This document shows positions 21,187-38,276 of a stretch of DNA of 64,000 nucleotides, piece by piece. How positions within the stretch are numbered: position 1 is the stretch's first letter; each line of letters starts with the position of its first letter. This DNA is from Candidatus Latescibacterota bacterium. Its GTDB lineage: Bacteria; Latescibacterota; UBA2968; UBA8231. The notes below the pieces were generated by a model. It searched no databases. It was not told the DNA's origin and saw nothing but the letters and a program-made list of their open reading frames with translations. The position numbers were made by a program, and so were the translations under genes. The stretch is taken from the NCBI GenBank assembly GCA_965206595.1, contig OZ242214.1:192001-256000 (forward strand). Direction: 5' to 3'.

Positions 21187-21290
21187 CGTTCCCGGGGGAG
21201 TCGGTCAAGGGAAGCCGCGCCTTCGGCAGGCAGCCCTCCGCGCTTGATGCAGCAAGGGTAATACCATAATTTACCGAAGGTTAGGTCAGT

Positions 21291-22223: not shown

Positions 22224-23497
22224 TAGTCGCTCTCGACTACGGCCGCAAGGGTATCGAGGCGGAGATACCGGACGACGCCGAGATCCTGTCGATGGCGGAC
22301 ATGCCCGGCTTGGACCGCATTGTAGAGCGGCTCCACGAATCCCTGCGGGCTCCTTCCGGGACGGCACCGCTCCTCGATTTGGCCCGCGGCCGGGAGGACG
22401 TATGCGTCGTCATCTCCGACATCACCCGGCCGGTTCCCAACTCCATTATCCTTCCGCCCATCCTGGATACCCTGGAAAACGCCGGCATAGCGCGCGATGC
22501 CATTACCATCCTGATCGCCACCGGACTGCACCGCCCCAACGAGGGGGAGGAACTGGTCGAGCTCGTCGGCCCTGAGATCGTGCAGAAATACCGCATCGAG
22601 AACCACCGGGCAAGGGATCGCCGCAGCCTGGCCTACCTCGGAGATACCTCGGCAGGAGCCCCGATCTGGGTTGACCGCCTCTACCTCGAAGCCGATCTGA
22701 AGATCGCCACCTCGTTGATCGAGCCCCACCTGATGGCCGGATACTCGGGTGGACGCAAGGCGATCTGTCCCGGGCTGATGGGTGTAGATACGGTGAAGGT
22801 GCTGCACGGACCTGAGCTGATGGGACACCCCAGATCCGCCGAGGGGATCCTCGAAGGCAACCCTTTTCACGAACAGGCCCTGGAAGTAGCCCGGACTGTC
22901 GGAGTCGACCTCGTTCTCAACGTGGCGATGAATGAAAAGCGGCAGATTTCAGGCGTTTTCTCCGGCGATCTGGAGAAAGCCCACGCCGAAGGCGTGGCAT
23001 TCGTGGAGGCAGCAGCCGTGGCTACCGTCGACGAGGCTGTCGACGTCGTGGTCACGACCAGCGCCGGGTTTCCCCTCGACCTGACCTTCTACCAAGCGGT
23101 AAAGGGAATGACGGCGGTGCTGCCGATCATCCGCGAGGGCGGCACCATTGTTATCGCCGCCAGCTGCGACGAAGGGCTGGGCAGCCGGGAGTTCAGCAAA
23201 CTGTTGCTGGGGACAACCGGGCTCGACGAGTTCGCCGGCAAATTGGCGTCGCGTGATTTCTTCGTCGTGGACCAGTGGCAGTTGCAGGAGTTGTGCAAGG
23301 TGCTCGCCAAGGCAAGGGTGAAGCTTTATTCTCAGAAGATCGCCCGCGATTTCGGAGCCTCCTTGCCGATGGTCGACGTAGTTCCCTCGGTAGAGGCGGG
23401 AATAGACGAAGCCCTCCGCGATTCGGGTAACAAAGCCCGCGTAGCCGTCGTCCCGAAAGGGCCCTACGTGCTGCCGCGATTGAGGTCGAGTCGCTGA
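22220..23497 (+). CDS. larA: LarA-family nickel-pincer-dependent racemase/epimerase
   Basis: ISDITRPVP, IATGLHR, IENH, IEPHLMAGYSGGRKAICPG, DLTFYQAVKG, DQWQ. Substrate is not necessarily lactate. Confidence 0.85.
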   Translation: MIVALDYGRKGIEAEIPDDAEILSMADMPGLDRIVERLHESLRAPSGTAPLLDLARGREDVCVVISDITRPVPNSIILPPILDTLENAGIARDAITILIATGLHRPNEGEELVELVGPEIVQKYRIENHRARDRRSLAYLGDTSAGAPIWVDRLYLEADLKIATSLIEPHLMAGYSGGRKAICPGLMGVDTVKVLHGPELMGHPRSAEGILEGNPFHEQALEVARTVGVDLVLNVAMNEKRQISGVFSGDLEKAHAEGVAFVEAAAVATVDEAVDVVVTTSAGFPLDLTFYQAVKGMTAVLPIIREGGTIVIAASCDEGLGSREFSKLLLGTTGLDEFAGKLASRDFFVVDQWQLQELCKVLAKARVKLYSQKIARDFGASLPMVDVVPSVEAGIDEALRDSGNKARVAVVPKGPYVLPRLRSSR

Positions 23498-23530
23498 GAC
23501 GACTGAATGGCTTAGGGGAAACAGATTCTC

Positions 23531-24616
23531 ATGGTGATTTCGAAGCAGAAACCGCAGCTTCCCAGCACCCTTGCTGGAATGGCTTTGCTGATTGCCATGG
23601 GCACAGGTTGCTCTCAGCTCGCATCGATTTGGGGAACGAGTTCTGAAGACGTGGCGGCTGTCCAACCAGCGACCCTCGAACCAGGGACCCCCGCCCAGCC
23701 GCCAATAGCCGTGGAGACGGTGGAACTCTCCGACGCTGAGATAGACAGCATAGATGCGCTCATGAAGGTCATCCTGATTCTGCCGTTCCGCGACGTGTCC
23801 AAATACAAGGGCCCTTGGGACATATACGGCCAACTCGCCCGTGGATTGGCCGACACCCTCGGGCGCTACAAGGCCTATCGCATAATTCCGCCGGACTCCG
23901 GGTTCGTCCGCCTCGGAAAAAAAGAGCGCCTCGGCAAGATCGAGTCGGGCAGGGCCGTACATCTGGGACGACAGCTGGAGGCCGATGTCGTAGTCCTCGG
24001 TGAAATCGAAGACATCAGCATGAAGCGGTTTCGCGCTACGGTCCCCTTGGGTGGATACCGGAGCTACCAGGGAGTTTCGGCGATACAGATCTTTTTCTAC
24101 AATGTCATCGACGGTCAACCCGCGGGTGAGTATCGGTGTGAAGGGCAGATCGACAGCAAGCGCACCGGCGTCGTCAACCCTGCTGCACATGTTCCCCTAG
24201 ACAAGGAATATTTTTTTCTGGGGGAAGCGGAATGGGGTTCCGCGGAGTTTCACAAGACCCTCGTAGGGCAGTCCGTCGACGAGTGCCTGCACCAACTGGG
24301 TGTGGGAGTCGAAGCCACGGTTAGGCCTGCTCCCGAGCTGAGCGTATCAGAGCCGAAAATCATAGATATCGATGCCGGCCGCGCGTATATTAATGTCGGA
24401 TCTGCGGACGGGGTCAGGAATGGGGACAAGTTTGGGGTCTGGGATCTTGGGCGTGAGCTTCGCGATCCGGAGACTGACACCGTTCTCGGCTACGCCGTAT
24501 CCAGACGAGTGGGGGTGATCCAGGTCGAACAGGTTCTCAACGAACACTTGTCACAGGTCAACATCCTCGATGGCCAGGAAGAGATCGAGTCGGCGTTTAC
24601 GATTCGGGCCGAATGA
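23531..24616 (+). CDS. Lipoprotein with CsgG/HfaB-like and FlgT C-terminal-like domains
   Basis: Lipobox MGTGC; ILILPFRD...LGRQLEADVVVLGEIED; AYINVGSADGVRNGDKFGVW...LRDPETDTVLG. Confidence 0.6.
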   Translation: MVISKQKPQLPSTLAGMALLIAMGTGCSQLASIWGTSSEDVAAVQPATLEPGTPAQPPIAVETVELSDAEIDSIDALMKVILILPFRDVSKYKGPWDIYGQLARGLADTLGRYKAYRIIPPDSGFVRLGKKERLGKIESGRAVHLGRQLEADVVVLGEIEDISMKRFRATVPLGGYRSYQGVSAIQIFFYNVIDGQPAGEYRCEGQIDSKRTGVVNPAAHVPLDKEYFFLGEAEWGSAEFHKTLVGQSVDECLHQLGVGVEATVRPAPELSVSEPKIIDIDAGRAYINVGSADGVRNGDKFGVWDLGRELRDPETDTVLGYAVSRRVGVIQVEQVLNEHLSQVNILDGQEEIESAFTIRAE

Positions 24617-25104
24617 GACGCATCTTTTTCCACAAGGCTGCAACGATTGCCTTCGCCTTGGGACTGGCCGCCCCGGTGGCTGGAGCCGGAAGTGGGGAGT
24701 TTCCCGTCTATCAGTTGTTCTACTTGTTTGATCCCGACGCAAAGGAACAGTTACGGAGGGCGCTGGTGCTGGAACGGGCGACCGCGCAGATCGAAGGGAT
24801 CGAGCTTCTGGGAATTGTGAATTCGAGTGATATGGGCTCTCCGGAACTGAACCGGCTCGACTTCCAAATATTGTCGGTCGGTTATTTTCTGCAGCAAGAA
24901 CAGTTAGCCGCAGGGGCCGAGGAAGACTGGTTCCGGTCGGGGGAGCTTGGCGGCCTCCTGCTGGTGAAGCAGACCGGCGCCGAAACCACAACTGTCGCCG
25001 GCGACGATTTTGAGGCGACGATTCACCGACTCTCCGCAACTCTACCGATCAGAACAGAGGTAGACGTCACCACTTGGGGGAAGGTCAAGGACCTATTCAA
25101 TTAA
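24613..25104 (+). CDS. Exported hypothetical protein with C-terminal TTWGKVK motif
   Basis: Signal peptide; overlaps the upstream stop (ATGA); ends TEVDVTTWGKVKDLFN. Confidence 0.7.
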   Translation: MRRIFFHKAATIAFALGLAAPVAGAGSGEFPVYQLFYLFDPDAKEQLRRALVLERATAQIEGIELLGIVNSSDMGSPELNRLDFQILSVGYFLQQEQLAAGAEEDWFRSGELGGLLLVKQTGAETTTVAGDDFEATIHRLSATLPIRTEVDVTTWGKVKDLFN

Positions 25105-25241
25105 AGTAGGTGCTCCAGGGGTTCAGGCAGCACGAAAAAGAGCTTTCCCAGACAAAACCCTCTTTCCGTATCTGGAGACAATTGGGTTGGAGGGGAGGTG
25201 TCTCGCATCGGCGTAACGGAAAATCAGAACAGGGATTTCGT

Positions 25242-26462
25242 ATGGGACCCGGAAGAGAGGGCGCATTTTTGCATCAATGCTACAGCCGCGGGTGCCGCCA
25301 CCGAAACGTGACCGCGGCAGCGGCGTTGCTCTGCCAGTTGACCCTGTTCTCGTTTGGGTGCGGGACGAACGAGGTTACCGTCGAAATCCGCGGTGGCGAA
25401 GGGGTTCAGATTCGCCTCGACGCAAACAGCCTTGAGCACGGGCGCAACCAGCTGGTCGACGCCGGCTCCTTTTCCTTCAACGATGTAAAGGGAGGCAGCT
25501 ACGAGGTGAACGTCGTTGCCGGATCCTATCTCGGCACACACACCCTTGAGATCGACTCGTCACCCATCGTCGGCAGCAACTCTCTAGGCCAAACATTTGA
25601 CATCCCGGGGGGCAGCAACGGGTCCTTCGCTCGCGAGGGCACGATATTGTTTTCATCCACAAGGACGACGTCGAGAAACTGGGACCTGTTCACAATAAAT
25701 GCGGACGGGAGCGAACTCACCCAACTCACCTCCTCCTCGGAGCCGGAACAGAGCGGAACTTGGTCTCCCGACGGTAATCGGATCGCCTTTACCCAGGGCG
25801 ACGTCCTTTCGAACATCGATGTCTACGTCATGTCTGCCGATGGGTCGCAACATCGGCGCCTGACGGAACACCCCGAACGGGATCAGCGGCCTGCTTGGTC
25901 TCCGGACGGATTGCAGATCGTTTTTGTCAGCCAAAGAGAGGGAGATGTCGAACTCTGGCTGATGGATGCGGATGATGGCGGCGACAAGCGCGAACTCACA
26001 AAGGGCAGAGATCCTTCCTGGGCCCCGAATGGAGACCTAATCGCTTTCGTCGGCCAGATGGATGGGAACGACGAGATCTACACCATCAGGCCGGATGGGT
26101 CCGACCTCCGCCGCCTTACCGATCAAAGGAAATTCGATTGGTTTCCCGCTTGGTCCCCATCTGGAGACCGAATCGCTTTCTGTTCGGAGCGCTTCGGTGG
26201 ACAGGAGTTGATGCTTGCCCGGACCGATGGCAGCGGACAGGCTCGCATCACTGTGGCTGAGGAGACGTACGAGCAGGAGCCGGCGTGGTCTCCAGATGGA
26301 AAGGGTCTGGCTTATTCAGGGAAAATGAAGGGCGATTACGAAATCTACCTCGTCAATACCCATGGCTTTGACTTCGATGATGTTGAAAACCCGGTAATGC
26401 CGTTCAACCTCACCGACAGCCCCGACCGCGACGACAAATCGCCGTCCTGGAGACCCTTCTGA
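25242..26462 (+). CDS. TolB-like beta-propeller (PD40 repeat) lipoprotein
   Basis: Lipobox FSFGC; repeats WSPDGNRIAF, PAWSPDGLQIVF, PSWAPNGDLIAF, PAWSPSGDRIAF, PAWSPDGKGLAY. Start uncertain (25110, 25242 or 25308). Confidence 0.85.
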   Translation: MGPGREGAFLHQCYSRGCRHRNVTAAAALLCQLTLFSFGCGTNEVTVEIRGGEGVQIRLDANSLEHGRNQLVDAGSFSFNDVKGGSYEVNVVAGSYLGTHTLEIDSSPIVGSNSLGQTFDIPGGSNGSFAREGTILFSSTRTTSRNWDLFTINADGSELTQLTSSSEPEQSGTWSPDGNRIAFTQGDVLSNIDVYVMSADGSQHRRLTEHPERDQRPAWSPDGLQIVFVSQREGDVELWLMDADDGGDKRELTKGRDPSWAPNGDLIAFVGQMDGNDEIYTIRPDGSDLRRLTDQRKFDWFPAWSPSGDRIAFCSERFGGQELMLARTDGSGQARITVAEETYEQEPAWSPDGKGLAYSGKMKGDYEIYLVNTHGFDFDDVENPVMPFNLTDSPDRDDKSPSWRPF

Positions 26463-26544
26463 AGCGCTCGGACCAGACAACCGCGTTGACAGTGCTACAT
26501 CGTCTCGTCAAGTTCCATATCGGTCCACTATATTCCATGCCAAA

Positions 26545-27237
26545 ATGAAGGAGCAAGGTCCCGTGGCCACACCAAGACTGCTGTATTCGACAGCTTCACA
26601 GCTGCTGGTTTGTTGCCTACTCGCATCCGGGTGCGCGACTACTTCGGGAGGGGGCGGTGGTCCCGCACCGATTCCGGAGGGGATGGGCAGGCTCATCCTG
26701 AATGCCGGCGGCATCAATGAGTTGAATTTCTACGTCATCGATCAGGATACCGATGCAGAGGTGTATTCCGATACTCCCCGCCTTTCGGCGAGTTCTCCGG
26801 CCTATTACGAAACGGGCGTTCAGGAATTCCGGTTGACGTGCGATATTCCGCCGGGACTCTACACCGTCGTCGTCAATACCGACATCGACGACAATGTGGA
26901 GATTAGGGACGTCGAAGTCGGATTGGGCGAGGAGAAGTACGTCCCCGTTCATGTCGGGCGATTCTCGGTCAGGTTCACAGGGGGCGAGGAGTTGGGGCGG
27001 CAGATACCCTTCCTCATCATGGACTACAACATGCGCACCGTTCTGGGCAAGGGGATGACCTCTTCGGAGATTCGTTATTTCATTGTCCCGGCCGGCAGGT
27101 CGTACAAGGTGCGCATCGAAAATTCACCGAGCGGCCTCGATGAGTTCCGGCCCGTAGAGGTCACCTACGGCGGAATCACTCACATAACGATCGAATCCGA
27201 GTCGCAGCAGCTCGAAGAGGAGGGCGGAATCGAGTAG
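26545..27237 (+). CDS. Hypothetical lipoprotein, beta-rich
   Basis: Lipobox LASGC; co-oriented within the cluster. Confidence 0.7.
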   Translation: MKEQGPVATPRLLYSTASQLLVCCLLASGCATTSGGGGGPAPIPEGMGRLILNAGGINELNFYVIDQDTDAEVYSDTPRLSASSPAYYETGVQEFRLTCDIPPGLYTVVVNTDIDDNVEIRDVEVGLGEEKYVPVHVGRFSVRFTGGEELGRQIPFLIMDYNMRTVLGKGMTSSEIRYFIVPAGRSYKVRIENSPSGLDEFRPVEVTYGGITHITIESESQQLEEEGGIE

Positions 27238-27315
27238 CGTGCACTTGGTGTAGTAACGATACTACATAACGATACAGCAGGAGAATCAGCGACCCCCCTT
27301 GCGAGAGAAAAAACC

Positions 27316-28173
27316 ATGAAGGCTCTTCCCGCACTGATCGCCACGGGTGTAGCTGTATGTTCAGTCGCAGCGCAACAATCCAACATCGTCGCAACTGTGG
27401 TGGACCGAGCCGGGAACCGCCACGAAGTGTCGAAGCTTACCTACCAGGGGGGCGATAACATAGAGATCTACGTTGGCAACCAGCGCCGTATCCTCAAAAT
27501 GCAGGATGTCGATCGGCTGAAAATGCAAGGCGACAAGAACGACGAAGAGCAGCAGGTTGCCATTTTCCTGCGAACCGGTGAGGTTCTCAACGCAACCATC
27601 TTTTCCGGCGGCAGCGGTAGTTCTCCCCACCAGGACAGCTTCGGTGGGGGTTCCGTGATGCAACGTTTTGGAGGGGTCACCGAACTCGGACCCTTTCTGA
27701 TCCTGATGTCGGAGGTCAGCGGCGTGCTGTTCCTTCATCCCTCAGCCGCGGAGCCCGATGTCAAACTCAAAGCCACAGTCATCAACGAGGCGGGGGAGCG
27801 CTTCGAGGTCACCAACATCCGTTTTCGCGGAAAGCGCCGATTCGGGTATTTCCAAGGGTTGAAATTGCGCTCCAAGGAGATGGCAAGGATCAGCCGGCTG
27901 GATTTCTCGAAGGCAGCTGCGGGCACCGAATCCCGCACTGTGACGATCACTTTTCGCTCGGGACGCACTACCCAGGGAACGGTCGACGCCAGCACCGTGC
28001 GACTGGCTGGGGAAACCAACCGCATTTACGAGGAGCGAGTGGGTTCGGCTTTTACGGGCAGTTCTGGAACTGGAGGTTTCGGAATAGGGTTACACGACGT
28101 CAAGCTGATTCGCTTTCACGAGGAGGGCGACGAGACTCAGAGCGAGGATGTTTCCGAGACGGAGGAGAAATAA
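27316..28173 (+). CDS. Exported hypothetical protein with internal duplication
   Basis: Signal peptide; ATVVDRAGNRHEVSKLTYQG versus ATVINEAGERFEVTNIRFRG. Confidence 0.7.
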   Translation: MKALPALIATGVAVCSVAAQQSNIVATVVDRAGNRHEVSKLTYQGGDNIEIYVGNQRRILKMQDVDRLKMQGDKNDEEQQVAIFLRTGEVLNATIFSGGSGSSPHQDSFGGGSVMQRFGGVTELGPFLILMSEVSGVLFLHPSAAEPDVKLKATVINEAGERFEVTNIRFRGKRRFGYFQGLKLRSKEMARISRLDFSKAAAGTESRTVTITFRSGRTTQGTVDASTVRLAGETNRIYEERVGSAFTGSSGTGGFGIGLHDVKLIRFHEEGDETQSEDVSETEEK

Positions 28174-28226
28174 TAGCCTCCAAAATTGTTGGGGGAGTCG
28201 GCAGGCAGACGACGGGGTTTTGCGCC

Positions 28227-29102
28227 TTGATTAAGGTCGGGATCTTCGCAGTCGCAATCGTTCCGGCATTCGCTCACCAACCCCCCGGAGTCAGTATTCG
28301 GGCGTTCCAATTTTCCGACAATCACAAACCTGTGATAGATGGCGACTTGGCGGACTGGGAAATCGTCGATTCCGAATTCTGTGTGTCAACACTTCAGCTT
28401 ACAGACCTTGTCAACGGGGCTTTGGCGGATCTCTCCGATTTCCGTACCACACTCTGCGTAGGCTGGAACGATGCGTCAAACCAATTGTATGTAAGTGCGG
28501 TAGTTGTCGATGACGTCCATCAAATTGATCGTCCCGAGGGAACTCCTCCCGCTTTAATATTTCAGGACGACGATCTGGAGATATTTGTGGACGCCGATCA
28601 TTCGGGCGGTCAGTTCGCCGATTTTTCGGACCTGAGTGAGGAAGATCAATTGCGCCTGAACGGCATTGAGGCCAACCACTTCATCCTGTCTGGTCCACCA
28701 CCTCCAAACGAAGATTTCTTCGTCAATTTTTCTGCTGCTGGGTGGTATTCGGAGCCGGATGGGGAGTTCACCAAGGCTGCAGTAGTGGTGGCAATGCCTG
28801 GTGTCGTGGCCTATGAACTGGCGCTGACCCCTTTTGACAGAATCGACGTGGGAGCTTCTTTCCTCAGTGTGGCACATGACTTACGCGAAGGGGAAGTGCT
28901 CGGATTCAACGCGGAGTTCAACGATTTCGATACCCACTCGGAACTTTACGAAGCCAAGTGGTCTCTGAGCGGGGGGCACAATGCTTTCCGGTTGTCCGAG
29001 AGGTTCAGCGATCTCGAGCTGGCAGGCATTTCCAAGCCGGTCGCAGGCACCGCAATTCTGGAAAAGTCTTGGGGTCAAATAAAAACTTCCATCCGACCGT
29101 GA
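28227..29102 (+). CDS. Exported CBM9/DOMON-like protein with C-terminal KSWGQIK motif
   Basis: PVIDGDLADW, VGWNDASNQLYVSAVVVDD, DDLEIFVDADHSGG; ends TAILEKSWGQIKTSIRP; TTG start. Confidence 0.65.
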   Translation: MIKVGIFAVAIVPAFAHQPPGVSIRAFQFSDNHKPVIDGDLADWEIVDSEFCVSTLQLTDLVNGALADLSDFRTTLCVGWNDASNQLYVSAVVVDDVHQIDRPEGTPPALIFQDDDLEIFVDADHSGGQFADFSDLSEEDQLRLNGIEANHFILSGPPPPNEDFFVNFSAAGWYSEPDGEFTKAAVVVAMPGVVAYELALTPFDRIDVGASFLSVAHDLREGEVLGFNAEFNDFDTHSELYEAKWSLSGGHNAFRLSERFSDLELAGISKPVAGTAILEKSWGQIKTSIRP

Positions 29103-29170
29103 AATGAACTATCTTACGGCGGACTTATGGCGGAGTTGCATCGGCTGACCGTTTGTACGAATTTACCGTC

Positions 29171-29270
29171 CCGAAAGAGCCGAAAGAGCCGAAAGAGCCG
29201 AGTGCGCCTTGGATCATTGGGGCGAGGCAAATAACAGGATCTAAGGGGCGAGGCAAATAACAGGATCTAA
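29171..29270. repeat. Intergenic tandem repeats: (CCGAAAGAG)x3 and a 26-bp unit x2
   Basis: 29171-29197 CCGAAAGAG three times; 29219-29270 GGGGCGAGGCAAATAACAGGATCTAA twice, exact. Confidence 0.95.
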
Positions 29271-29290
29271 ACACAGGAGCCCGTGCGATT

Positions 29291-30070
29291 ATGTTCGCGA
29301 AACCGGATTTGGGACCGGCTACACCGCGCATAACACCTTTTCATCTCTTCGCAAAGATTGCCCTCGTCTCGATGATTTTGGCGAGTTGCGGATACTACCA
29401 CTATGCCACACCCTTGCGGCCCGCCGAGGGTCAGCAGAGTGCGATGAGTGTCGCTGACGACGGCAGCATTACCTTCACGCAGGATCGCCTTGAGGTCAGG
29501 CTTCGTCCTATGACGGACGAGGAGCTCAATCGGCAGTTTGCATCCCATTCTAATTCGGGACCGAAATCTACGAATCCCTATACCTACGGAAACACAAAGT
29601 TCTGGGAGGGCGAGCAGGAACGCACCCGATTTACGGTGTTTCGTCTCAGTGTCAAGAATTACGCCTATCCGAAGGTGAAGATTGATCCCGCCCGGATTCA
29701 GCTCGTCGCATCGAATAACCGCGAGTACTGGAGCCTAGGGAAACAGCAGATGGACACATACTACCGCGCCTATGCAATCGGGTATCGAGGCAACGAGTAC
29801 AACCGCTACCAAGAGCGGATGGATCTGCTGAATCGTACCATGTTCAAAAACGAAGAGATCTTCAGCGGACAGGAGAAGGAGGGGTTCGTAATTTTTCCTG
29901 CACTTCACCCCGATGTCCGCGAGGTAAACGTCATCGTTCACGATTGCGTACTGAGGTTCGACTACCGAAATGAACCGGTTGAAGCGGTCGATATTACCTA
30001 CGGTTTCGAACGAGACATCGGTCGCAGGTATGGCGATGCCGAACCAGAAATCGAGACTGCGAGCAAGTAG
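29291..30070 (+). CDS. Hypothetical lipoprotein
   Basis: Lipobox ILASC; AGGAG upstream. Confidence 0.72.
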   Translation: MFAKPDLGPATPRITPFHLFAKIALVSMILASCGYYHYATPLRPAEGQQSAMSVADDGSITFTQDRLEVRLRPMTDEELNRQFASHSNSGPKSTNPYTYGNTKFWEGEQERTRFTVFRLSVKNYAYPKVKIDPARIQLVASNNREYWSLGKQQMDTYYRAYAIGYRGNEYNRYQERMDLLNRTMFKNEEIFSGQEKEGFVIFPALHPDVREVNVIVHDCVLRFDYRNEPVEAVDITYGFERDIGRRYGDAEPEIETASK

Positions 30071-30099
30071 CGAGAAATACCACAAGGAGGATTGAGCTC

Positions 30100-31035
30100 A
30101 TGAATCCAGGGCGTCTATTCGCAACCGCCAGCGCCATAACGGTTCTGGCGACCACAGCGCATGCAGTAGTGAACATTCAGAACATCGGCGCGGGGGCACG
30201 CTCGGCATCGCTTGGCAACGCTTTTGTGGCCGTGGCGGATAATGGCGATGCGGTGTTCGCCAATCCGGCGGGGCTGAGCCAAGTCGAGGGCCGCCAGTTA
30301 GCCTACACCAACGTTTCTCTGCTATTCTCTGGGATCGATGGTGACAATCTGGGTCAGCACCTTTCCAGCTTTGTGCAGCCGATGGGAGAAAAGTTGGCCT
30401 TAGGCCTAGGCTACGAACGAATTGGCTCCGATCTGATGAGTGAAAACGGGGCGTTCTTCGGCCTGTCTTACCAGCTGAACCGAACCCTGTCCTTGGGATT
30501 AACGGCGAAATACCTGTTCTGGAGCGTGGGTGATATTCCAGACGATCCGGTAATGGGAGCTGATCCCCTGTCGAATACCAGCAACGGAGCCCCCGGCGTT
30601 GATGTCGGACTGCTGTGGAAGTCGCCGTTGGGCGGGGCGCATCTAGGGGTGCTGTTGAAGAACTTGAACCAACCGAACGTTGCAAAAACGTCGGTCCCGG
30701 GCGATCCTGATGCCGGCAAATTGCCAATGGATGTGCATATCGGTATAGCAGCCCCTGTGGCGGAGACCTCAATGGTGTCAGTTCAGTGGGTGATGCGCGA
30801 TCTCGGGGGCGAAACTGAGAAGAGTCTGGTAGTCGGTGGCGAGACCGTTCTGGTCGAAGGGCTGATGCTGCGTGCCGGAGGAAGTCGGGTTCTCGAAGAC
30901 GATGTCAGCGGCGATCTCAATGCCGGTCTGGGGTACCGGTGGAACAAAATGCTTTTTGACTACGGCTACCAAATCCCACTTGATCTGACCGGAACCAACG
31001 GATCACATCGTTTCTCTCTGAATTACATGTTGTAA
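30100..31035 (+). CDS. PorV/PorQ (UPF0164, FadL-like) outer-membrane beta-barrel
   Basis: GAGARSASLGNAFVAVADNGDAVFANPAGL N-terminal signature; FDYGY...HRFSLNY C-terminal strands; AAGGAGG RBS. Confidence 0.8.
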   Translation: MNPGRLFATASAITVLATTAHAVVNIQNIGAGARSASLGNAFVAVADNGDAVFANPAGLSQVEGRQLAYTNVSLLFSGIDGDNLGQHLSSFVQPMGEKLALGLGYERIGSDLMSENGAFFGLSYQLNRTLSLGLTAKYLFWSVGDIPDDPVMGADPLSNTSNGAPGVDVGLLWKSPLGGAHLGVLLKNLNQPNVAKTSVPGDPDAGKLPMDVHIGIAAPVAETSMVSVQWVMRDLGGETEKSLVVGGETVLVEGLMLRAGGSRVLEDDVSGDLNAGLGYRWNKMLFDYGYQIPLDLTGTNGSHRFSLNYML

Positions 31036-31078
31036 CAAATCCTTCTGTTAATAGAATAACTGGCAAGGAGTTCTGGTC

Positions 31079-34000
31079 ATGACGGTCTGGTTGGGACTAA
31101 TAGTCCTGGGCCTTGGAGTGGGGACTAGCCTCTTCCTCCCCGTTCCGCAGAGCCTGAAGACCAAATTCGACGCGGGTCAATCACTTTATGCCCTCGGCGA
31201 GTACGAAGGCGCCATCATCGAGTACAGCAAAGTTGTCAAGTTCAACAGTCGGGCAGTTAGAACCGACAGTGTTCTTGTCAATTTCGGCGATGAGTTGGAG
31301 TTGCCGATCATGGCCGCGGCTTGGTATCAGCTTGGCAACGCCCACATGCGTAGCGGGGCCCACGAAAAGGCAGTCGATGCCTTTCGTCAGGTGACGGAAC
31401 AGACCGGCGTTCCTGAAGACTTCAGTCAACTCGTCCAATTTCGGGTGGCCGAGACCCGCTTCATGCAAAAGGAGTTTGGCAAGGCTGCAGACGAGTACAA
31501 GCGGTATGTCGAAATGTTCCCGGATTCGAGACTAGCCGGAGAGTCGCTGTTCTACGCCGGTTGGAGCGAGTTCAGTCTCGAGTCCTATGCTCAGGCCATC
31601 AACACCCTCTCAAGCATGCTTGAGAGGTATCCCGATGATCGCTACGCCCCGGACTCCCAATTCCGTATCGCATCGTCTTACTACGAGAAAGCCGAATACC
31701 AGCGAGCCGTGGACGAGGCTCAGGCTGTGCTTGATGGCTACCCGCAAAGTCCCGTCATCGCCTCAGCGACCTATTTGAAAGCTCAGGCCTTCGATGAGAT
31801 GGATCGGCCGGAGGAAGCAATCCAGGCCTATCGGGAGGTGCGGGATCTTTATGACCGTATGTACGAATTGCTTCGAGGGTCTTTCCGGGAAGGCAAGAAT
31901 GTTGATTTTGAGAATTATCGGCAGTTGTTCGAAACGTCATCGTTGCGCGTCGCTGAAATTTACCGCAAACAAGGCAGATTCGAAGAGGCCTACCAGGAAT
32001 TGATATCCGCTCAGGAAACGGCCGAGGAGCGCTTCTACAAGGCCAAAGTCCAGATGCGCCTTGGTGATAATTATATGGAATGGGAGCGCTTCGAGGATGC
32101 CTGGAACACTTATAATCAGGTGATCACCCTATATGGGGATACCCCGTATCCACCAAATGCCCAGTATCAGAAGGGAGAAGCGCGTTACTTCGCTAACCGA
32201 TACGACGAAGCCCGGAGCGATTACCGGCTCGTAACCCAAAACTATCCAGACAGCGAAACTTCGTTACGAGCCCAGGCTCTCTACAGTGCAGGTTGGTCGT
32301 CCGAAAAGTTGGGGGATTTCGAAGAGGCTCAGAGCCTTTACAATGAGGTCGTCGAGAGTTTTTCGAGGTCTGATCAAGCGCCGTTATGTCTTTTGCGAAT
32401 CGGCCGGGTCAATACCGAGCAACAACGCTTTGATGAGGCAATCGAAGCCTACAAGATGATCGCCGAAAACTATGGAGAGACAAAACACGCAGCTGACGGC
32501 AACTACGGTCTGGGAATTCTCTACAAGCAAACAGGAAGACTTGGGGAAGCTATCGTGGCTTTTTCGCGCGTGGGACGCAAAGCGCGTGAGGTGTATGTTG
32601 CATCCTTGATTGAGGCGGCAAACATACACATCGGAGAAGGCCGACCAGAGCAGGGGAAGGAGCTCCTCAGCGAGTTATTGGAAGGAGTAAGCGGAGACCG
32701 CGACCTCGAGGCTACGGCACATTACCAGATCGCACAATTGGATCTGAATAATAAAAACTATTTTGACGCTATCACACGCTACACAAAAGTAATCGAGGAA
32801 TACCCCGAGGCAGGGGCGGTTCGGGATGCACACTATGGCCGTGGTCTTGCCTACCATTACGCCAATCGATACAGCAGGGCAGTCGCTGATTATAAGTGGC
32901 TCCTTGATTCCGACTTACCGGAAACCATGGTTTTGAAGGTCGAATTCTCGATGGCCCTGTCGTTGTCCGCTCTAGGGAAGGACGAGGAGGCGACTGAGTT
33001 ATTAACCAAGGTCATCGATTCAGGAGACGAGACCCTCGCGCGCAATGCCCAACTACAGCTAATCTCGATGGCTGAGAAGCAGGATCCTCAAGACGCGATA
33101 CGCACCTACGAAAGTATGCTCGCCAAGCTCGAATCCGAGGAAGACAAAGTGCGAGTGCTGATCCGCTTGGCAAGCGCCTATTTCAGACTTGAGCAGTACG
33201 ATCGAAGCATCCAGGCATCGCAGCAACTCATTGACCTTGCCGTGGACGTCGAAAGCATCTCCAATGCGTTGTTTGTGCAGGCAAATAGCTATTTCCGCTC
33301 AGGAAATCTGGAAAAGGCGATCGCGACTTATCAGACTATCATCGATAACTATCCTCAAATTGGCTGGGCGAAAAATGCTCAATTCCAGATCGGGGTTGCC
33401 TACAATGCCCTGTCCGGAGGCGGCAATGTGCAATACCTACCGTTGATGGTGGAAGCTTTCAGAAAATATCACCAGACCTACCCGGATGACGAAAGGGCCG
33501 TTTACGCTCATTACTATGATGCGTGGGCGAGTTACCGCATGGGCAAGTGGCGTGAAGCAAGTACCGCATTCGATCAGTTGGAAAAGACCTATCCCTCGTC
33601 CCGTTTCGCTCCTGAAGCGCTGTTCCGATCGGGAGAAGCGATCTTTAACCAAGCTCAGGGCTTACTTCGGGGAGAAAAGAATCAGATTTTTATCGAAGCA
33701 ATGGGAAAATACGATCGCATTTTGAGTCGGTATTCGAAGTCCGAATACGTGGATGATTCCTTGTATAACAAAGCATGGGCACTGATTCATCTTGGACGGA
33801 AGGAAGAGGCCCTGCCAATATTTGAACGGATTGTAGACAATCATCCGGACGGCTATTACGGTCCAAAAAGCCAGTTCACCCTCGGGGATTTCTATTACAG
33901 CGAGAAGGTCTACGATAAAGCGACGGAGAATTACAAAAAATTCCTTGAGATATATCCCGATGACCGTCTGAAAAAAGCCGAAGACAAGAAACTACGTCGA

Positions 34001-34324
34001 AAGGCGACTGTCCTTCTCGGCCATCTCTCGGAGATTGATGCCTACAATGTTTACGCGGAAGGCGAGAAGCTGTTCGACAAGGAACAGTACGTAGAGGCGA
34101 TCGAAATTTTCGAGCAGGTTCTGGAGAGGTATCCGGACAGCGACCAAGCGGTAAACGCTGCCGTCAACATTGGGGCCGCCTACATGGCACAAGAAGATTA
34201 CCGGAAGGCTGCCGACCTGTTCAAAGGAGTAGTGGAAAAATACAGCGAAGCAGCGAGGTTTTCGCCTCAAGTAAATTTTTCCAAGCAGCAGCTGCAGGCT
34301 CTGGAAGAGGCTCGCGTCATATAA
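31079..34324 (+). CDS. Large membrane-anchored tetratricopeptide-repeat protein (1081 aa)
   Basis: N-terminal hydrophobic helix; many BamD/CpoB-like TPRs (YPDDRYAPDSQFRIA, YPSSRFAPEALFRSG, YPDSDQAVNAAVNIG). Confidence 0.9.
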   Translation: MTVWLGLIVLGLGVGTSLFLPVPQSLKTKFDAGQSLYALGEYEGAIIEYSKVVKFNSRAVRTDSVLVNFGDELELPIMAAAWYQLGNAHMRSGAHEKAVDAFRQVTEQTGVPEDFSQLVQFRVAETRFMQKEFGKAADEYKRYVEMFPDSRLAGESLFYAGWSEFSLESYAQAINTLSSMLERYPDDRYAPDSQFRIASSYYEKAEYQRAVDEAQAVLDGYPQSPVIASATYLKAQAFDEMDRPEEAIQAYREVRDLYDRMYELLRGSFREGKNVDFENYRQLFETSSLRVAEIYRKQGRFEEAYQELISAQETAEERFYKAKVQMRLGDNYMEWERFEDAWNTYNQVITLYGDTPYPPNAQYQKGEARYFANRYDEARSDYRLVTQNYPDSETSLRAQALYSAGWSSEKLGDFEEAQSLYNEVVESFSRSDQAPLCLLRIGRVNTEQQRFDEAIEAYKMIAENYGETKHAADGNYGLGILYKQTGRLGEAIVAFSRVGRKAREVYVASLIEAANIHIGEGRPEQGKELLSELLEGVSGDRDLEATAHYQIAQLDLNNKNYFDAITRYTKVIEEYPEAGAVRDAHYGRGLAYHYANRYSRAVADYKWLLDSDLPETMVLKVEFSMALSLSALGKDEEATELLTKVIDSGDETLARNAQLQLISMAEKQDPQDAIRTYESMLAKLESEEDKVRVLIRLASAYFRLEQYDRSIQASQQLIDLAVDVESISNALFVQANSYFRSGNLEKAIATYQTIIDNYPQIGWAKNAQFQIGVAYNALSGGGNVQYLPLMVEAFRKYHQTYPDDERAVYAHYYDAWASYRMGKWREASTAFDQLEKTYPSSRFAPEALFRSGEAIFNQAQGLLRGEKNQIFIEAMGKYDRILSRYSKSEYVDDSLYNKAWALIHLGRKEEALPIFERIVDNHPDGYYGPKSQFTLGDFYYSEKVYDKATENYKKFLEIYPDDRLKKAEDKKLRRKATVLLGHLSEIDAYNVYAEGEKLFDKEQYVEAIEIFEQVLERYPDSDQAVNAAVNIGAAYMAQEDYRKAADLFKGVVEKYSEAARFSPQVNFSKQQLQALEEARVI

Positions 34325-34364
34325 GCTTTTCGGGCTGCAGCACTAACAGGGAGGATTGTAGCAA

Positions 34365-35018
34365 ATGTTAGATTTCTTTCGCGACGGGGGACCGTTCATG
34401 TATCCGCTGGGCCTTTGGTCGATTATGGCCGTGGGTTTCTTCCTTGAGCGAGTGTGGACATATTCGCGGATGCGCAGTGAAGAAGAAGTTGCCGAAGCGA
34501 CCAACGATATTAACACCCGGGTTGAATCGGGTACCACTTTCGAGCAGTTGCGTGAGTACTGCGCAGAGGTGGGCAAGCTCGAAGGTGAAGTATTCTTGGA
34601 GGGTATTATTCGTTTCGAGCACCTTTCGAGAGAACAGCGCAATGTGGAAGAAATGCGCGTCGAGATGAACGGCACCGTAGAACGGGCAGCACTTGGCTAT
34701 CTGGAGCGCTACTTGTCGGTGATCCAGTTCGTCGCCAACTCGGTGGTGTTGTTGGGGCTGCTCGGAACGGTGAACGGAATGATCCGGGCCTTCGAGGGTA
34801 TCGCGGAGAAGGGTCTCGGTGAGCCGACGATCGTTGCGGCGGGGATCTCAGAAGCGCTGATTACCACCGTTACTGGCCTTGTAATCGCTGTGCCTTCGAT
34901 TGCCATTTACACCTATTTCAGCACCCGTGCCGACAGCAGGTTCGTTCAGTTCGAGGCCTACGGACACGGGTTCGTCGACGCGTTGCTACGTCGTTGGCAG
35001 TCCTCGCAAGCTGCCTGA
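34365..35018 (+). CDS. MotA/TolQ/ExbB proton channel protein
   Basis: GGPFMYPL, LGLLGTVNGMIRAF, GISEALITTVTGLVIAVP. Confidence 0.93.
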   Translation: MLDFFRDGGPFMYPLGLWSIMAVGFFLERVWTYSRMRSEEEVAEATNDINTRVESGTTFEQLREYCAEVGKLEGEVFLEGIIRFEHLSREQRNVEEMRVEMNGTVERAALGYLERYLSVIQFVANSVVLLGLLGTVNGMIRAFEGIAEKGLGEPTIVAAGISEALITTVTGLVIAVPSIAIYTYFSTRADSRFVQFEAYGHGFVDALLRRWQSSQAA

Positions 35019-35064
35019 GCGGCATTCTTGCAATTCTTAATCAGGTAGGGAGGGACAAGGAGAG

Positions 35065-35484
35065 ATGGCAGCCGTCAAAAAACGTGGTAGCCAGGACGAA
35101 AAACCTGACCTCACACCGATGATTGATGTGGTGTTTCAGCTTCTCATTTTCTTCATGGTAACGGCGGTGTTCGCTATCACCCCCGGCTTGGACATCAAAT
35201 TGCCAGAGGCAGAGGAGTCTCAGGCTCCCGAGAAGGAAAACCTCTTCATTGTGGTCGACCAGGATGGCAATATGAAGCTCAACCATAAGAGCGTTACGTT
35301 TGCCAATCTCAAAGAGGAACTGCAGGCCAAGAGGACGCTATTGGACAACACGACCTTGATCATTATTCAGGGCGACGAACGCGCTACGCATGGCCAGATT
35401 GTCCAGATCATGGACATTGCCAGACAGGTAGGCATTGTTGACCAAGTGATCGCAACGGAGCCGCAGAGAGGGCGTGGCAAATAA
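35065..35484 (+). CDS. ExbD/TolR protein
   Basis: LTPMIDVVFQLLIFFMV with the conserved TM Asp; IQGDERATHGQIVQIMD. Confidence 0.93.
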   Translation: MAAVKKRGSQDEKPDLTPMIDVVFQLLIFFMVTAVFAITPGLDIKLPEAEESQAPEKENLFIVVDQDGNMKLNHKSVTFANLKEELQAKRTLLDNTTLIIIQGDERATHGQIVQIMDIARQVGIVDQVIATEPQRGRGK

Positions 35485-35562
35485 TCATCTACTCTGTGGT
35501 GGATGCGTAAGTTCCAGATGACGTACTCTTGCGCCAAACGCCGAGTTGAGGACTGAATAACC

Positions 35563-36894
35563 TTGGACGATCGAAAGAAACAATTATACGCGATATTTGG
35601 GGTAGCAGTGCTGGTTCACCTGCTGCTCGTCATTTCCAAATGGTTCGCGTACGCATTGGGCGCAGCTGCTCTTGCGGTGCTCCTGATGGCGCTGTGGAAA
35701 GCTACGACTGGACGACGTCTGGGCCTTAACGCCGCCCTGATTCTGTCGATGATTGTCCACGCCGGAGCTTGGGGTATCGCCTATTATATGCAGCTTACAG
35801 TGGTGGAAGAAGAAGAAAAGCTGATTTATTTCCAGGCGCCTCCTCCCATTTTGCAGAAAAACTTCGATCTCGCGAAACAGCCAGAGATATCGGAAGTACA
35901 GATGGAAATGCTGCTCTCACAGGCAATGCAAGCGCCTGATGATATTTCGGCAATCGTCGATGTCAGTTCGGTGGGAAGTGATCTCCTTGGGGCAGTGTTG
36001 CCCGGAACTCAGGTCCTAGGAGCCTTCAGCGGGGCAAAAGCCGAAGAACTCGCTTTTGACCAAGTCGAGATGATCGAGTTGACCGAGACGGCGGCACCCG
36101 TGCAGGAAGCCTTGAGCTTAAAACAGGAACTGCTGAACGTCGGTGACCTGGACTTCGGTCGTTTCCAAGCCATCCTAATTCAGGATCCGGGCAACAAACG
36201 CAATATCAAAGGCTTCTTCAACATGACGGTGGTCGACTACGACTTGGCCGACAAAAGTATCGATCGCTTTCCCACCGCCGTAGAGGAGTTGATGCGCTAC
36301 ATCCGCGACCACTCCCGCGTGAACGCACGTATCGAGGGTACGACATTGCGGCTCAGTGACCCCAGTGTGATGAAAGCGCCGTTTATCTATCTGACAGGGA
36401 ATAGCGCAGTATTCCAGTTCACTAACACGGAGAAGGAGAACCTTGGCGAGTATCTGAAGAACGGCGGGTTTCTGTTCGCGGAAGAGATTCGGCAGGCGGA
36501 TGCGGAAAACGGTCTCACAGGCAAGAATGCAGGAGTTCAGGGGACTCTTTTCGATCGGCAGTTCAAGGCATTGATGGAAGATCCGGCGGTTCTGGGAAGC
36601 GATGGCAGCAAATGGCAGAAAATTCCGAAAGATCACGATCTATACTACAGTTTTTTCGATTTCGAGGATGGTCCGCCTATGGGTGGGGCTCCGGGTGGCA
36701 ATGTTTTCGACCTCGAAATGCTTGAGCTTCGAGGTCGCGTCGCGGTGGTTTTTAGCGATCTCAATGTCAGCTGGTACTGGGGTGATCCGAACGCCGACGC
36801 GAGGGAGCGTGGTCTGCAATTCGGGGTCAATTTGATTGTTTATGCGCTCACCCAGCCTGGTGGTATTGCTAATGTGACTCAATACACCCAGTAG
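35563..36894 (+). CDS. Membrane-anchored DUF4159-like protein with TonB-type SxxxH helix
   Basis: TM segments including LSMIVHAG; APPP linker; C-terminal PFIYLTG...EKENLGEYLKNGGFLFAE...GVNLIVYALTQ. Confidence 0.7.
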   Translation: MDDRKKQLYAIFGVAVLVHLLLVISKWFAYALGAAALAVLLMALWKATTGRRLGLNAALILSMIVHAGAWGIAYYMQLTVVEEEEKLIYFQAPPPILQKNFDLAKQPEISEVQMEMLLSQAMQAPDDISAIVDVSSVGSDLLGAVLPGTQVLGAFSGAKAEELAFDQVEMIELTETAAPVQEALSLKQELLNVGDLDFGRFQAILIQDPGNKRNIKGFFNMTVVDYDLADKSIDRFPTAVEELMRYIRDHSRVNARIEGTTLRLSDPSVMKAPFIYLTGNSAVFQFTNTEKENLGEYLKNGGFLFAEEIRQADAENGLTGKNAGVQGTLFDRQFKALMEDPAVLGSDGSKWQKIPKDHDLYYSFFDFEDGPPMGGAPGGNVFDLEMLELRGRVAVVFSDLNVSWYWGDPNADARERGLQFGVNLIVYALTQPGGIANVTQYTQ

Positions 36895-36918
36895 CTTTAA
36901 CCTCGCCGACAACGAGCA

Positions 36919-36961
36919 AAGCCCGACGGTCCTTCACGGATCTCGCCGGGCTTCTTTTTTT
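36919..36961 (+). terminator. Rho-independent terminator ending the envelope cluster
   Basis: AAGCCCG...CGGGCTT stem followed by a T7 run; ISL3 copy 2 abuts the T tract. Confidence 0.7.
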
Positions 36962-38082
36962 GGCTCGTCAGTAGAATTCGTGGGTGAATTGTGGCTCGGG
37001 TAAATCGCCAAGCTGATGGAATGAAGCGATTTGGAGTGCCTTGAAGGTGCGGCATCCGAATGCTTTTCTCCCTGTCAGATTCCATTTCAGGTTCAAGCCC
37101 TCGACCATGCCGTTGTTGAACTGCTTCCTGGCCCTGAACCAATTGAGGATGAGCTCTTGGTGACGCCGCAGCATTCCGGCGATGTCTTTCATCGGTTCGA
37201 TGTTGCTTCTCATCGTACGGAAACACCCGCGCTGGAGGAACTTCTCAGCCCACGCGGAGTAGGTGTAGTCCCAGAAGCGCTGGAAGTCCTCCTTGAGCAG
37301 GTAGGCTCTGACCGTCCGCAGGTTCATCTTCAATAGCTCCGACAGCTTCAAGCCTTGGGAGTCGCTTCTGGTCGAGGAAACGGGTCGGCTCCTGCTCGCC
37401 GCCGGCTTCCTGCTTGCGCCGGTGCTCCTGCTCCCGTTCGGTAAAGCCGTCGTTCAAGGCCTTCTTCGTCCGCTTCTCGCCCATCCACAACAGGCGGCGG
37501 CGGTGGGGGTCGATCTGGTACAGCAACGTCAGATAATGAGGCCCCTTACGATACTGGATTTCATCCACGCCGAGGGCCGTGACCTGGTCGAGGCAGCGAT
37601 GAGCGAGCCCATAGTCCACGACGTACTGGACGGAGTGGTAGACCTTGTCCCAACGGGTCCGGAAGGAACGCGCCACCTCGATCCACGACAGTTTTTTGGC
37701 CCCCTGGGCCAGGAAGCAGCGGTAGAGGTCGGTCAGGTGGTGCTTGCCCGTGCTCCAGGGGACCTTCTCGACGACCACCCGGCCGCAGGCTTTGCAGGCA
37801 ACCCGGCGCATGCGATACACCAGAAAGACCGGAAACCCCCAGAGGGGAACAAACTCGAACAGCCGGGCCTCGGGGGCCGTGTCATAGGTGGGGGCCAAGT
37901 GACCGCAGCCGCTGCACGCGCCCCGGGAGTTTTTCCGTGGCCTTATCCTCACCATTATCCTTCCGTGCCGGTCAAAATGACTGCCCTCAAACACAAACCG
38001 CTTGAAGGTCGTGCACCGGTTTAGTACCGTGATCAGGCGCATCATTCCCTCCACAGGTAGTTGGGTTCCGTCTTGGTGGACT
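36962..38082 (-). mobile_element. ISL3 copy 2 (internal deletion of about 220 bp; left end lost at the IS3 junction)
   Basis: Near-identical to copy 1; right IR GGCTCGTCAGTAGAATTCGTGGGTGA intact; lacks copy-1 17452-17672; similarity stops at 38082. Confidence 0.92.
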
Positions 38083-38276
38083 AGAGGTGGACCCCATTCT
38101 TTGGACAGCCGGACAGCAGGATTAGGTGGATTCATTGTGGTTAATTTGCTGCCCTGTCCTTCTTGTTCTGGAGTCCCCTGAGACCTCCTTTCCGACTCTG
38201 CAAGATCGCCGTTTTGCTGGGTGCAGGATCGTCCACCCGTCCTTGGCAAATTGTCCACACCGTCCCCCCTTCCCTG

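Follow-up and report, generated by a model that had tools for sequence, protein, structure and literature searches.

A putative proton-motive-force-driven envelope operon with a DUF4159-headed force-transducer candidate in Latescibacterota

Described motor systems and the g1-g12 operon

One family of proton motors imports nutrients in the Ton system, holds the outer membrane in the Tol system and drives gliding in the Agl system. We analyzed a stretch of 64,000 nucleotides (the window) from a Candidatus Latescibacterota bacterium, which corresponds to bases 192001-256000 of a single-contig genome of 7.05 Mb that is 92.9% complete, and found an operon of 12 genes, designated g1-g12, that carries a motor of the ExbB/ExbD type. 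The architecture of this operon fits the class of non-TonB-headed force transducers, which was recognized only in 2025. In the sections that treat this class, Williams-Jones et al. (Mol Biol Evol 2025; PMC12204202) described bitopic proteins in which a disordered linker joins an SHLS/His helix to a vWA head, and section 8 of that paper gave a scheme of unknown function that comprises a tetratricopeptide repeat (TPR) protein, a tolQ-like gene, a tolR-like gene and an SHLS-anchored transducer whose globular head is not of the TonB type. The main text of PMC12204202 made no mention of DUF4159, Latescibacteria or the Fibrobacteres-Chlorobi-Bacteroidetes (FCB) group. Luciano et al. 2011 (PMC3169522) described a motor/TPR/TonB-like 'core complex' of unknown function that is conserved outside myxobacteria. 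A first-pass annotation of the window had called the locus a candidate undescribed machine; this label does not wholly hold, as the scheme described in PMC12204202 was already in print as a class of unknown function. What sets the window system apart is the head of the transducer, its partner lipoprotein, the barrel and the tagged proteins.

We propose, with a probability of about 0.6, that the operon encodes a member of the Ton/Tol/Agl superfamily, a system that uses the proton motive force to transmit force across the envelope. The operon gives a testable parts list for an FCB lineage, consisting of a DUF4159 head with a lipoprotein partner, a scaffold, a barrel and candidate clients with a short C-terminal tag. 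In the list of open reading frames (ORFs) of the window, 12 co-oriented envelope ORFs with short gaps occupied positions 23531-36894 of the + strand and formed one operon. As first annotated, this operon ended in a single terminator, where a hairpin followed by U7 was seen. The features were as follows:

g1, 23531..24616, +: lipoprotein of 361 residues, accessory; GTGC is lipobox-like by eye
g2, 24613..25104, +: small exported protein with the tag end TTWGKVKDLFN; no Pfam or NCBIfam family
g3, 25110..26462, +: PD40 beta-propeller lipoprotein, TolB-like, accessory; PD40, with TIGR02800 below cut-off
g4, 26545..27237, +: lipoprotein of 230 residues, accessory; ASGC lipobox, no family
g5, 27316..28173, +: exported protein, internally duplicated, accessory; N-terminal hydrophobic segment
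g6, 28227..29102, +: CBM9-like exported protein with the tag end SWGQIKTSIRP; CBM9_1
g7, 29291..30070, +: lipoprotein, likely partner of the DUF4159 head; adjacency, fusions and invariant Cys33
g8, 30100..31035, +: 14-strand-type outer-membrane barrel, distant PorV/PorQ member; NF033709 and PorV 6h3i
g9, 31079..34324, +: periplasmic TPR scaffold of 1081 residues; TPR families, N-terminal hydrophobic anchor or signal
g10, 34365..35018, +: ExbB/TolQ-type stator subunit; PF01618
g11, 35065..35484, +: ExbD/TolR-type stator subunit; PF02472 and membrane Asp
g12, 35563..36894, +: force-transducer candidate; three N-terminal helices, SxxxH, conserved post-membrane motif, low-confidence linker of ~130 residues and DUF4159 head
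Terminator, ~36919-36961, +: intrinsic, GC-rich hairpin with U7 in the fold of 36885-36990

Signal peptides, lipoboxes and anchors of the 12 proteins were called by eye and with a crude hydropathy scan, and Pfam and NCBIfam scores were set against curated cut-offs. Pfam gave no family for five of the 12 proteins (g2, g4, g5, g7 and g8), and g1 had no Pfam or NCBIfam family above threshold. The terminator was not among the sites listed by a simple consensus terminator scan. Plug, TonB_dep_Rec, TonB_C and OmpA/Pal domains were found in none of the 12 proteins with either database, in agreement with the earlier statement that the cluster has no TonB-dependent receptor, TonB C-domain or Pal.

Conservation of the core, its motor and its candidate transducer

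A scan of genome contigs was filled by relatives from the same phylum (212, of which the best 80 were kept), so that the neighbourhoods mapped here lie within the phylum. The distribution counts refer to 168 genomes of the phylum, whose families are labelled f1-f14. The order of the core genes g7-g12 was kept in at least six families of Latescibacterota. Neighbourhood conservation had been put forward as a check of the first-pass annotation and was borne out across families, with g9-g10-g11-g12 collinear in the loci of all 14 relatives (14 genomes). In these loci, g8 lay directly upstream of g9 in 11 cases, one of the misses being a contig end, and g7 was adjacent in six and elsewhere in the locus in three. 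Among 90 loci (L046-L135), many of which end at contig ends, orthologues at 75% coverage or more were found for g12 (82 loci), g11 (81), g10 (77), g9 (72), g8 (49), g7 (40) and g6 (37). Because the order is conserved across families, the arrangement is far beyond chance. A g12 match at E <= 1e-10 was present in 109 of the 168 genomes, with counts of 75/75 in f1, 3/3 in f5, 3/3 in f6, 2/2 in f9, 1/1 in f11 and 5/6 in f12; families f3 (1/22) and f4 (0/31) were nearly without a match at this threshold. Close g12 orthologues were found in most of f1 and additionally in f5, f6, f9, f11 and f12.

Since their presence varies among the relatives' loci, g1-g6 are lineage-variable accessories outside the core. 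Orthologues of g1 were found at only two of the 90 loci (L046 and L049), those of g4 were found at nine loci, families f5 and f9 included, and g3 was not present in most relatives' clusters. The label 'CsgG/FlgT-like' for g1 was not sustained: a Pfam FlgT_C match stayed below threshold (20 bits against a cut-off of 27), and no CsgG match appeared in the Pfam and NCBIfam scans. The propeller assigned to g3 was found (PD40, 124.5 bits in Pfam), and g3 does not qualify as a TolB equivalog, with 174.8 bits for TIGR02800 against an NCBIfam cut-off of 343. The g3 start probably lies downstream of the GTG at 25110. The internal duplication reported for g5 was evident from the alignment of its halves to each other (E 2e-07), and the CBM9-like character of g6 was also recovered (CBM9_1 in Pfam, 33.5 bits against 23.4). 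Single-sequence searches of the PDB with g1, g6 and g8 gave nothing useful.

The two motor subunits were found well above the Pfam cut-offs. The g10 protein matched MotA_ExbB (PF01618) with 83.5 bits against 22.9, and g11 matched ExbD (PF02472) with 102.4 bits against 25.4 and retained the membrane Asp in an MIDVVF segment. At three loci (L053, L124 and L126), the ExbB/ExbD pair was only 24-31% identical to that of the window, whereas the adjoining g9 and g12 were 54-68% identical; the motor is displaced in these three lineages, and the slot is still filled by a motor. We also observed a 631-residue ORF far from the operon that contains a stretch with 74% identity to the periplasmic part of the ExbD protein g11, residues 54-136 (C1:5695463-5695726; L015).

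As judged from its sequence, g12 is a force-transducer candidate with a non-TonB head. Three hydrophobic helices were present at the N-terminus, with S-x-x-x-H on the third, and DUF4159 was the sole domain match (Pfam, 96.3 bits against 25.9, residues 223-429), so that both parts of the combination first annotated, a TonB-like anchor and a DUF4159 domain, were recovered. The TonB C-terminal models PF03544 and TIGR01352 did not match g12, nor did any vWA family of Pfam at E <= 0.01. The His of SxxxH was kept in nine of 10 orthologues and two of three paralogues (alignment A1), and the post-membrane residues F90, P95, K99, F101 and L103 were invariant or nearly so and common to orthologues and paralogues. 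At the level of sequence, the TonB-like anchor of g12 is therefore supported. The model of g12 had a predicted local distance difference test (pLDDT) value of 49.5; in it, residues 79-260 form a linker of low confidence, and the head is of the alpha/beta kind. The only PDB relative of g12 by sequence was 4i66, an uncharacterised protein. A homologue search with g12 recovered close orthologues only, a protein atlas contained neither g12 nor g7, and a literature search on DUF4159 gave nothing beyond the Pfam paper. By analogy with TonB and TolA, the ExbB/TolQ-ExbD/TolR stator formed by g10 and g11 in the inner membrane would engage the SxxxH helix of g12, which would span the periplasm by its disordered linker and present the DUF4159 head in place of a TonB or TolA C-domain. 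In a profile search, SxxxH-DUF4159 transducers were expanded in two genomes, with 44 matches in one (about 35 of them full-length) and 18 in the other (G007 and G008).

These data bear on the alternative that the operon is a divergent Tol-Pal equivalent of the phylum, which would tether or constrict the outer membrane in growth and division and handle no cargo. Its TolQR-type motor would pull on lipoproteins of the outer membrane by way of a TolA-like arm, together with a TolB-like propeller and a CpoB-like TPR protein. The best NCBIfam matches of g10 and g11 were indeed TolQ (77.8 bits) and TolR (68.9 bits), g9 contained nine YbgF/CpoB-type stretches (TIGR02795, 310.6 bits), g3 is TolB-like, and lipoproteins are encoded by g1, g4 and g7. 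No canonical tolQRAB-pal operon was found in the genome, in which the Pal model TIGR02802 gave two OmpA-like matches below cut-off, both away from any motor. According to the sections of PMC12204202 on these genes, identifiable tol-pal loci are absent from Bacteroidetes and CpoB was ancestrally a lipoprotein. However, the TolQ and TolR scores fell below their cut-offs (221 and 127), as did the TolB score, and neither an OmpA/Pal peptidoglycan-binding domain nor a TolA domain III was present in the 12 proteins. In addition, g3 is absent from most relatives' clusters, and the system is nearly absent from f3 and f4 at E <= 1e-10. A copy number of about 35-44 transducers in one genome and 18 in another is unlike a housekeeping Tol system. 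We therefore regard a Tol-Pal equivalent as unlikely.

The likely partner lipoprotein, the second system and the barrel

We found that the transducer head has a recurrent partner, which, judged from gene neighbourhoods and fusions, appears to be the g7 lipoprotein family. The genome contains four adjacent pairs of g12-like and g7-like genes. The g7 family is small: among 1.84 billion sequences, a threshold of E <= 1e-3 gave 268 representatives and one of E <= 1e-30 gave 63. Cys33 of g7 is invariant among its relatives. Eight of the 10 scanned representatives of ~490-530 residues combined a g7-like part and DUF4159 in one chain, seven of them above the Pfam cut-off for DUF4159 and one of them a lipoprotein of Candidatus Kryptonia. 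The other two (P0171 and P0173) were BlaR1/M56-type membrane proteins in which the C-terminal part of the g7 domain occurs three times. Because of the natural fusions and the fourfold adjacency, we argue that the DUF4159 head and g7 may work together.

Longer forms of g7 were different in their C-terminal region. All nine representatives of ~400-434 residues had a TonB_C-like tail, which in eight was of the AgmX/PglI (GltG/GltJ) type (NF033768; six above cut-off), and the ninth matched TIGR01352 alone, with 27.0 bits against a cut-off of 27.1. The GltG/GltJ-type tail was also found on two g7 paralogues of this genome (L008 and L010); NF033768 matched neither g12 nor the window's own g7. The AlphaFold2 model of g7 (pLDDT 85, predicted template modelling score 0.78) revealed an Ig-like beta-sandwich, for which the nearest solved folds were the Gram-positive lipoproteins YcdA and YjhA and the protein MPT63, with Z-scores of 8-9 that are near background. 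The best hit of the fold search was YcdA of B. subtilis (Z 9.4), the best Foldseek E-value was 2e-3, and a g7 profile searched against PDB sequences gave nothing useful.

The phylum has two paralogous systems that combine a motor, a TPR protein and a DUF4159 transducer, and the window operon is one of them. Three further g12-like genes were found in this genome, each adjoining a g7-like lipoprotein gene; two of them sit after genes for a giant TPR protein and for a DUF5683 protein, and all three lack a motor of their own. The second system was intact in families f7 and f10, in the order TPR, DUF5683, small protein, ExbB, ExbD, ExbD, g12-like and g7-like, and in this genome it was split. The ExbB and ExbD proteins of the intact modules matched the orphan ExbB and the ExbD pair of this genome. 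A paralogue of g1 adjoins the g7-like gene of the module at 3.81 Mb. The parts were located as follows:

Second system, module with g12-like gene: 3.81 Mb, C1:3806000-3825500 (L009)
Second system, orphan ExbB: 3.80 Mb (L136)
Second system, two ExbD: 3.76 Mb (L014)
Second system, intact order for comparison: L168 and L171

Additionally, a family of exported proteins of ~900-1050 residues, with no Pfam family, weak SlpA beta-barrel matches and barrel-like C-termini, was observed to recur, often in tandem, beside g12-like and giant TPR genes:

Exported family of ~900-1050 residues: L009:15272-18424, L010:2154-4832, L161, L163-L167 and L171-L173

T9SS-type cargo genes (T9SS, type IX secretion system) adjoin two parts of the second system. 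This adjacency was rejected as evidence, since the ~136 FlgD_ig-type C-terminal domains of the genome make it expected by chance.

A further alternative is import or surface transport, either Ton-like uptake in which g12 opens an outer-membrane barrel for a nutrient or a surface conveyor like Glt/Nfs. Transducers in many copies recall the multiple TonB paralogues that serve many receptors, the barrel-like exported proteins adjoin g12-like genes in the paralogous modules, and a connection of the g7 family with the Agl-Glt transducers is provided by the GltG/J-type tail of its long forms. A 'core complex' with the same parts list was set out by Luciano 2011 (PMC3169522). On the other hand, the window operon contains only a small PorV-like barrel, with no large barrel and no plug domain, and the genome already has 24 Plug-domain receptor genes, none of them among the 12 operon genes, and a canonical Ton set at 5.09 Mb, in which a TPR gene, ExbB, ExbD and ExbD are followed by the only clear TonB_C of the genome. 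Moreover, no GltD, GltE or GltC family match was listed for g9 in NCBIfam, and the operon has one ExbD against the two TolR-like subunits of Agl. Either form of transport thus seems improbable for the window operon.

The g8 protein matched PorV_fam (NF033709) with 71 bits (E 1.2e-19), below the cut-off of 90, and was not listed for the PorV equivalog NF033710 at E <= 0.01. When a profile of 20 g8 relatives was compared with the PDB, PorV (6h3i) was the sole match below E 0.01 (E 0.0088). The description of g8 as a PorV/PorQ-type barrel is thus right as a family likeness, and g8 is not a PorV equivalog. Little can be learned from the spread of g8 across genomes, as there is a second g8-like barrel that stands by itself among housekeeping genes. 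In g9, Pfam detected several TPR families, and NCBIfam gave a PorW/SprE match of 113.9 bits, below cut-off. As suggested by the conserved gene order, the giant TPR protein g9 may serve as the scaffold of the assembly at g8, a small barrel of the PorV/FadL type.

Such likenesses could mean that the operon energises or assists the T9SS, g8 acting as a shuttle in the manner of PorV and g9 as a TPR linker resembling PorW. SprA was found in 163 of the 168 genomes and here lies at 6657307-6662565, and PorU (617 bits) adjoins the true PorV at 0.14 Mb, ~50 kb upstream of the window (L142, C1:134000-150000; PorV at 0.142 Mb). A vacant motor position might be read from the absence of matches to GldL (TIGR03513) and GldM (TIGR03517) in this genome and to GldM in all 168 genomes (0/168), in searches that had no positive control, and T9SS-type cargo genes stand beside two parts of the paralogous system. 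However, that same lack of a control weakens the GldL/GldM result, the best PorW-like protein of the genome is encoded at 1.48 Mb and is not g9, and the cargo adjacency is of the kind expected by chance. In addition, f3 and f4 keep SprA (22/22 and 31/31) without the transducer family, and the cargo-like proteins of the operon bear a short tag rather than a T9SS C-terminal domain. A role in energising or assisting the T9SS accordingly has little probability. Literature searches found no paper on a T9SS in Latescibacteria and only unrelated papers on the combination of ExbB, ExbD, PorV and TPR proteins. The search for SprA, Gld proteins and Pal that the first-pass annotation had proposed gave a mixed outcome: SprA was present, GldL and GldM were not found in those uncontrolled searches, and GldK and Pal gave matches below cut-off only. 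Its wider claim, that the cluster is neither Ton, Tol-Pal nor T9SS, agrees with the Ton set at 5.09 Mb, with the location of SprA, PorU and PorV elsewhere and with the lack of a Pal.

The C-terminal tag, the proposed mechanism and comparison with known systems

Two operon proteins, g2 and g6, end in a WGxIK-type motif. In the genome as a whole, (T/S)AVESV(S/T)WGRIKASL, mostly followed by 2-6 residues, forms the end of 88 ORFs with a length of 80 residues or more, and a looser pattern gave 108 ORFs per 7.05 Mb genome. Most of the tagged proteins have a signal peptide; a few of the ORFs are fragments, and one is disrupted by an insertion sequence. The tag-free bodies fell into at least five unrelated groups and ~12 singletons: 57 with the CBM9-like g6, nine PD40 propellers, two groups of four (one lipocalin-like) and one group of two, with BNR and lamin-tail (LTD) domains of Pfam among the singletons. 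No NCBIfam model covered the tag in the 11 proteins scanned, and a search of the literature with the tag strings found no related paper. Many tagged genes were observed in tandem arrays beside PD40 propellers (e.g., C1:6974845-6984018 and 446980-456040).

The tag is retained in the orthologues of g6, in which protein a His follows right after the predicted signal cleavage site. The same arrangement, a His directly after a predicted A-x-A cleavage site, was observed in 44 of the 47 full-length tagged proteins of the g6 cluster (40 by script and four by eye). As predicted from sequence, this His would be the first mature residue of g6-type proteins (e.g., L143 and L144), a position that we take to recall the histidine brace of copper enzymes such as lytic polysaccharide monooxygenases.

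The distribution of the tag was examined with a broader DNA pattern, since the strict WGRIKA pattern undercounts tags. The pattern was found in f1 (75/75, 2-75 per genome), f5 (3/3), f6 (3/3), f9 (2/2) and f12 (5/6), and was also present in f7, f8, f11 and f13. Single hits at most were found in f2, f3 (2/22), f4 (6/31) and f10 (3/13), and f14 had no hit. These 13 single hits in 74 genomes amount to roughly double the level of a reversed-pattern control (14 hits in 168 genomes). From the DNA-pattern and g12 distributions, all lineages with a window-type operon are tagged and the transducer-free lineages are untagged, and at the family level the tag appears largely to track the transducer family. 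Furthermore, 58 of 82 cluster loci bear a tagged ORF in or beside the operon, all of them in f1, against the genome background of 108 per 7.05 Mb. We consider this association of tag and operon a lead and not proof. Secretion or surface display, as first annotated, may be the role of the operon, and the C-terminal tag on two operon proteins, with a family-level distribution that largely follows the transducer family, gives circumstantial support.

Returning to the force-transduction system proposed above, the DUF4159 head would act with the g7 lipoprotein, as the recurrent adjacency and the natural fusions suggest. Among possible targets of the force, we tentatively prefer the outer-membrane handling of tagged exported proteins such as g2 and g6, be it export, surface docking or release. 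A more speculative extension, to which we give still less weight, is that the operon and its paralogous modules read the tag and power a new pathway that sorts ~90 tagged proteins at the outer membrane. In such a pathway, the TPR scaffold, g7 or the DUF4159 head would capture tagged proteins in the periplasm, and these would be delivered to or through the PorV-like barrel, with the proton motive force passed on by the TonB-like arm. If so, the ExbBD/TolQR motor would have a fourth role in addition to import, tethering of the envelope and gliding. A true link between tag and reader would mean a new protein-sorting route in uncultured, polysaccharide-degrading and possibly sponge-associated bacteria, and a function assigned to DUF4159. 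Should the link fail, the operon is still a lead on envelope energisation in bacteria without a recognisable Tol-Pal.

Several observations weigh against the force-transduction reading and its extension to tagged proteins. The model of g12 is poor (pLDDT 49.5), the Ig-like sandwich of g7 is a common fold from which no function can be read, and g8-like barrels also stand alone in housekeeping contexts. Family f10 has g12-like genes in 13/13 genomes and essentially no tag, and two genera of f1 (genus labels g5 and g10) and families f7 and f8 have tags with paralogous transducers only. A tagged gene near the operon was found at 0 of 13 loci outside f1; the physical linkage is confined to f1 and may reflect one or two ancestral events. 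As relatives are not independent, the co-occurrence of tag and transducer is suggestive only. The RNA-library contigs described next may contain DNA, and they derive from a related strain.

The operon is preceded by cytoplasmic genes (NTP transferase and LarA-like) and followed by transposase fragments. Four RNA libraries from a single study of sponge metagenomes contained contigs with 90-95% identity to the window. These contigs covered g4-g12, and one spanned the g9-g10 junction; g1-g3 were in part thinly covered, which is no evidence of silence. We take these contigs as a hint of expression of the operon, and their presence across window positions 21000-38500 (runs X14, X15, X16 and X18) is a hint that the lineage is associated with sponges. 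The region is flanked by transposase genes or fragments of the ISL3 and rve types (window 16764-17798, 37245-38258 and 38141-38986). The GC content of the cluster was 0.50-0.57 compared with 0.61-0.69 in its flanks (composition of 24000-38000), although the cluster is old in the phylum. A 993-residue Plug-domain ORF, a TonB-dependent receptor, lies 16 kb upstream at window 4686-7667, with no sign of operon membership.

We compared the window system with the described systems and found partial similarity to each. With Ton it shares the stator families, the SxxxH anchor, the conserved post-membrane segment and, in some genomes, transducers in multiple copies; unlike Ton, g12 has no TonB_C and the operon has no Plug or TonB-dependent transporter gene. 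The features common with Tol-Pal are the TolQ/TolR-like best matches, the TolB-like propeller, the CpoB/YbgF-type TPR units and the outer-membrane lipoproteins. In contrast to Tol-Pal, there is no OmpA-like domain of Pal and no TolA domain III, the equivalog scores lie below cut-off, and the propeller is not part of the core. The combination of a TolQR-type motor, TPR proteins and a TonB-like transducer is shared with Agl-Glt/Nfs, to the extent covered by the corresponding part of PMC3169522. The AgmX/PglI (GltG/GltJ) C-terminal domain is found here on long g7-family lipoproteins and not on the membrane-anchored transducer. Agl-Glt pairs AglR (TolQ-like) with two TolR-like proteins, AglQ and AglS, whereas the window operon has a single ExbD and the second system has two; neither an FHA domain nor any part of the GltA/B/H/K type was identified in the window system. 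As in the T9SS, a PorV/PorQ barrel, distant in the case of g8, adjoins proteins with a C-terminal address. That address is an Ig-like C-terminal domain of 80-100 residues in the T9SS and a tag of ~15 residues here, and the motor is GldLM there and of the ExbBD type here.

The likeness was most extensive with the non-TonB-headed force transducers, as these are described in the relevant sections of PMC12204202. The SxxxH helix, the linker and the globular C-terminal head of g12 have their counterparts there, as does the synteny of TPR, tolQ-like, tolR-like and transducer genes (g9-g12). The head is vWA in those proteins and DUF4159 by Pfam in g12, and their motor has a heterologous ExbD pair where the window operon has one ExbD. 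Beyond what those sections describe, the window operon also encodes a PorV-like barrel, a dedicated partner lipoprotein and exoproteins with the tag.

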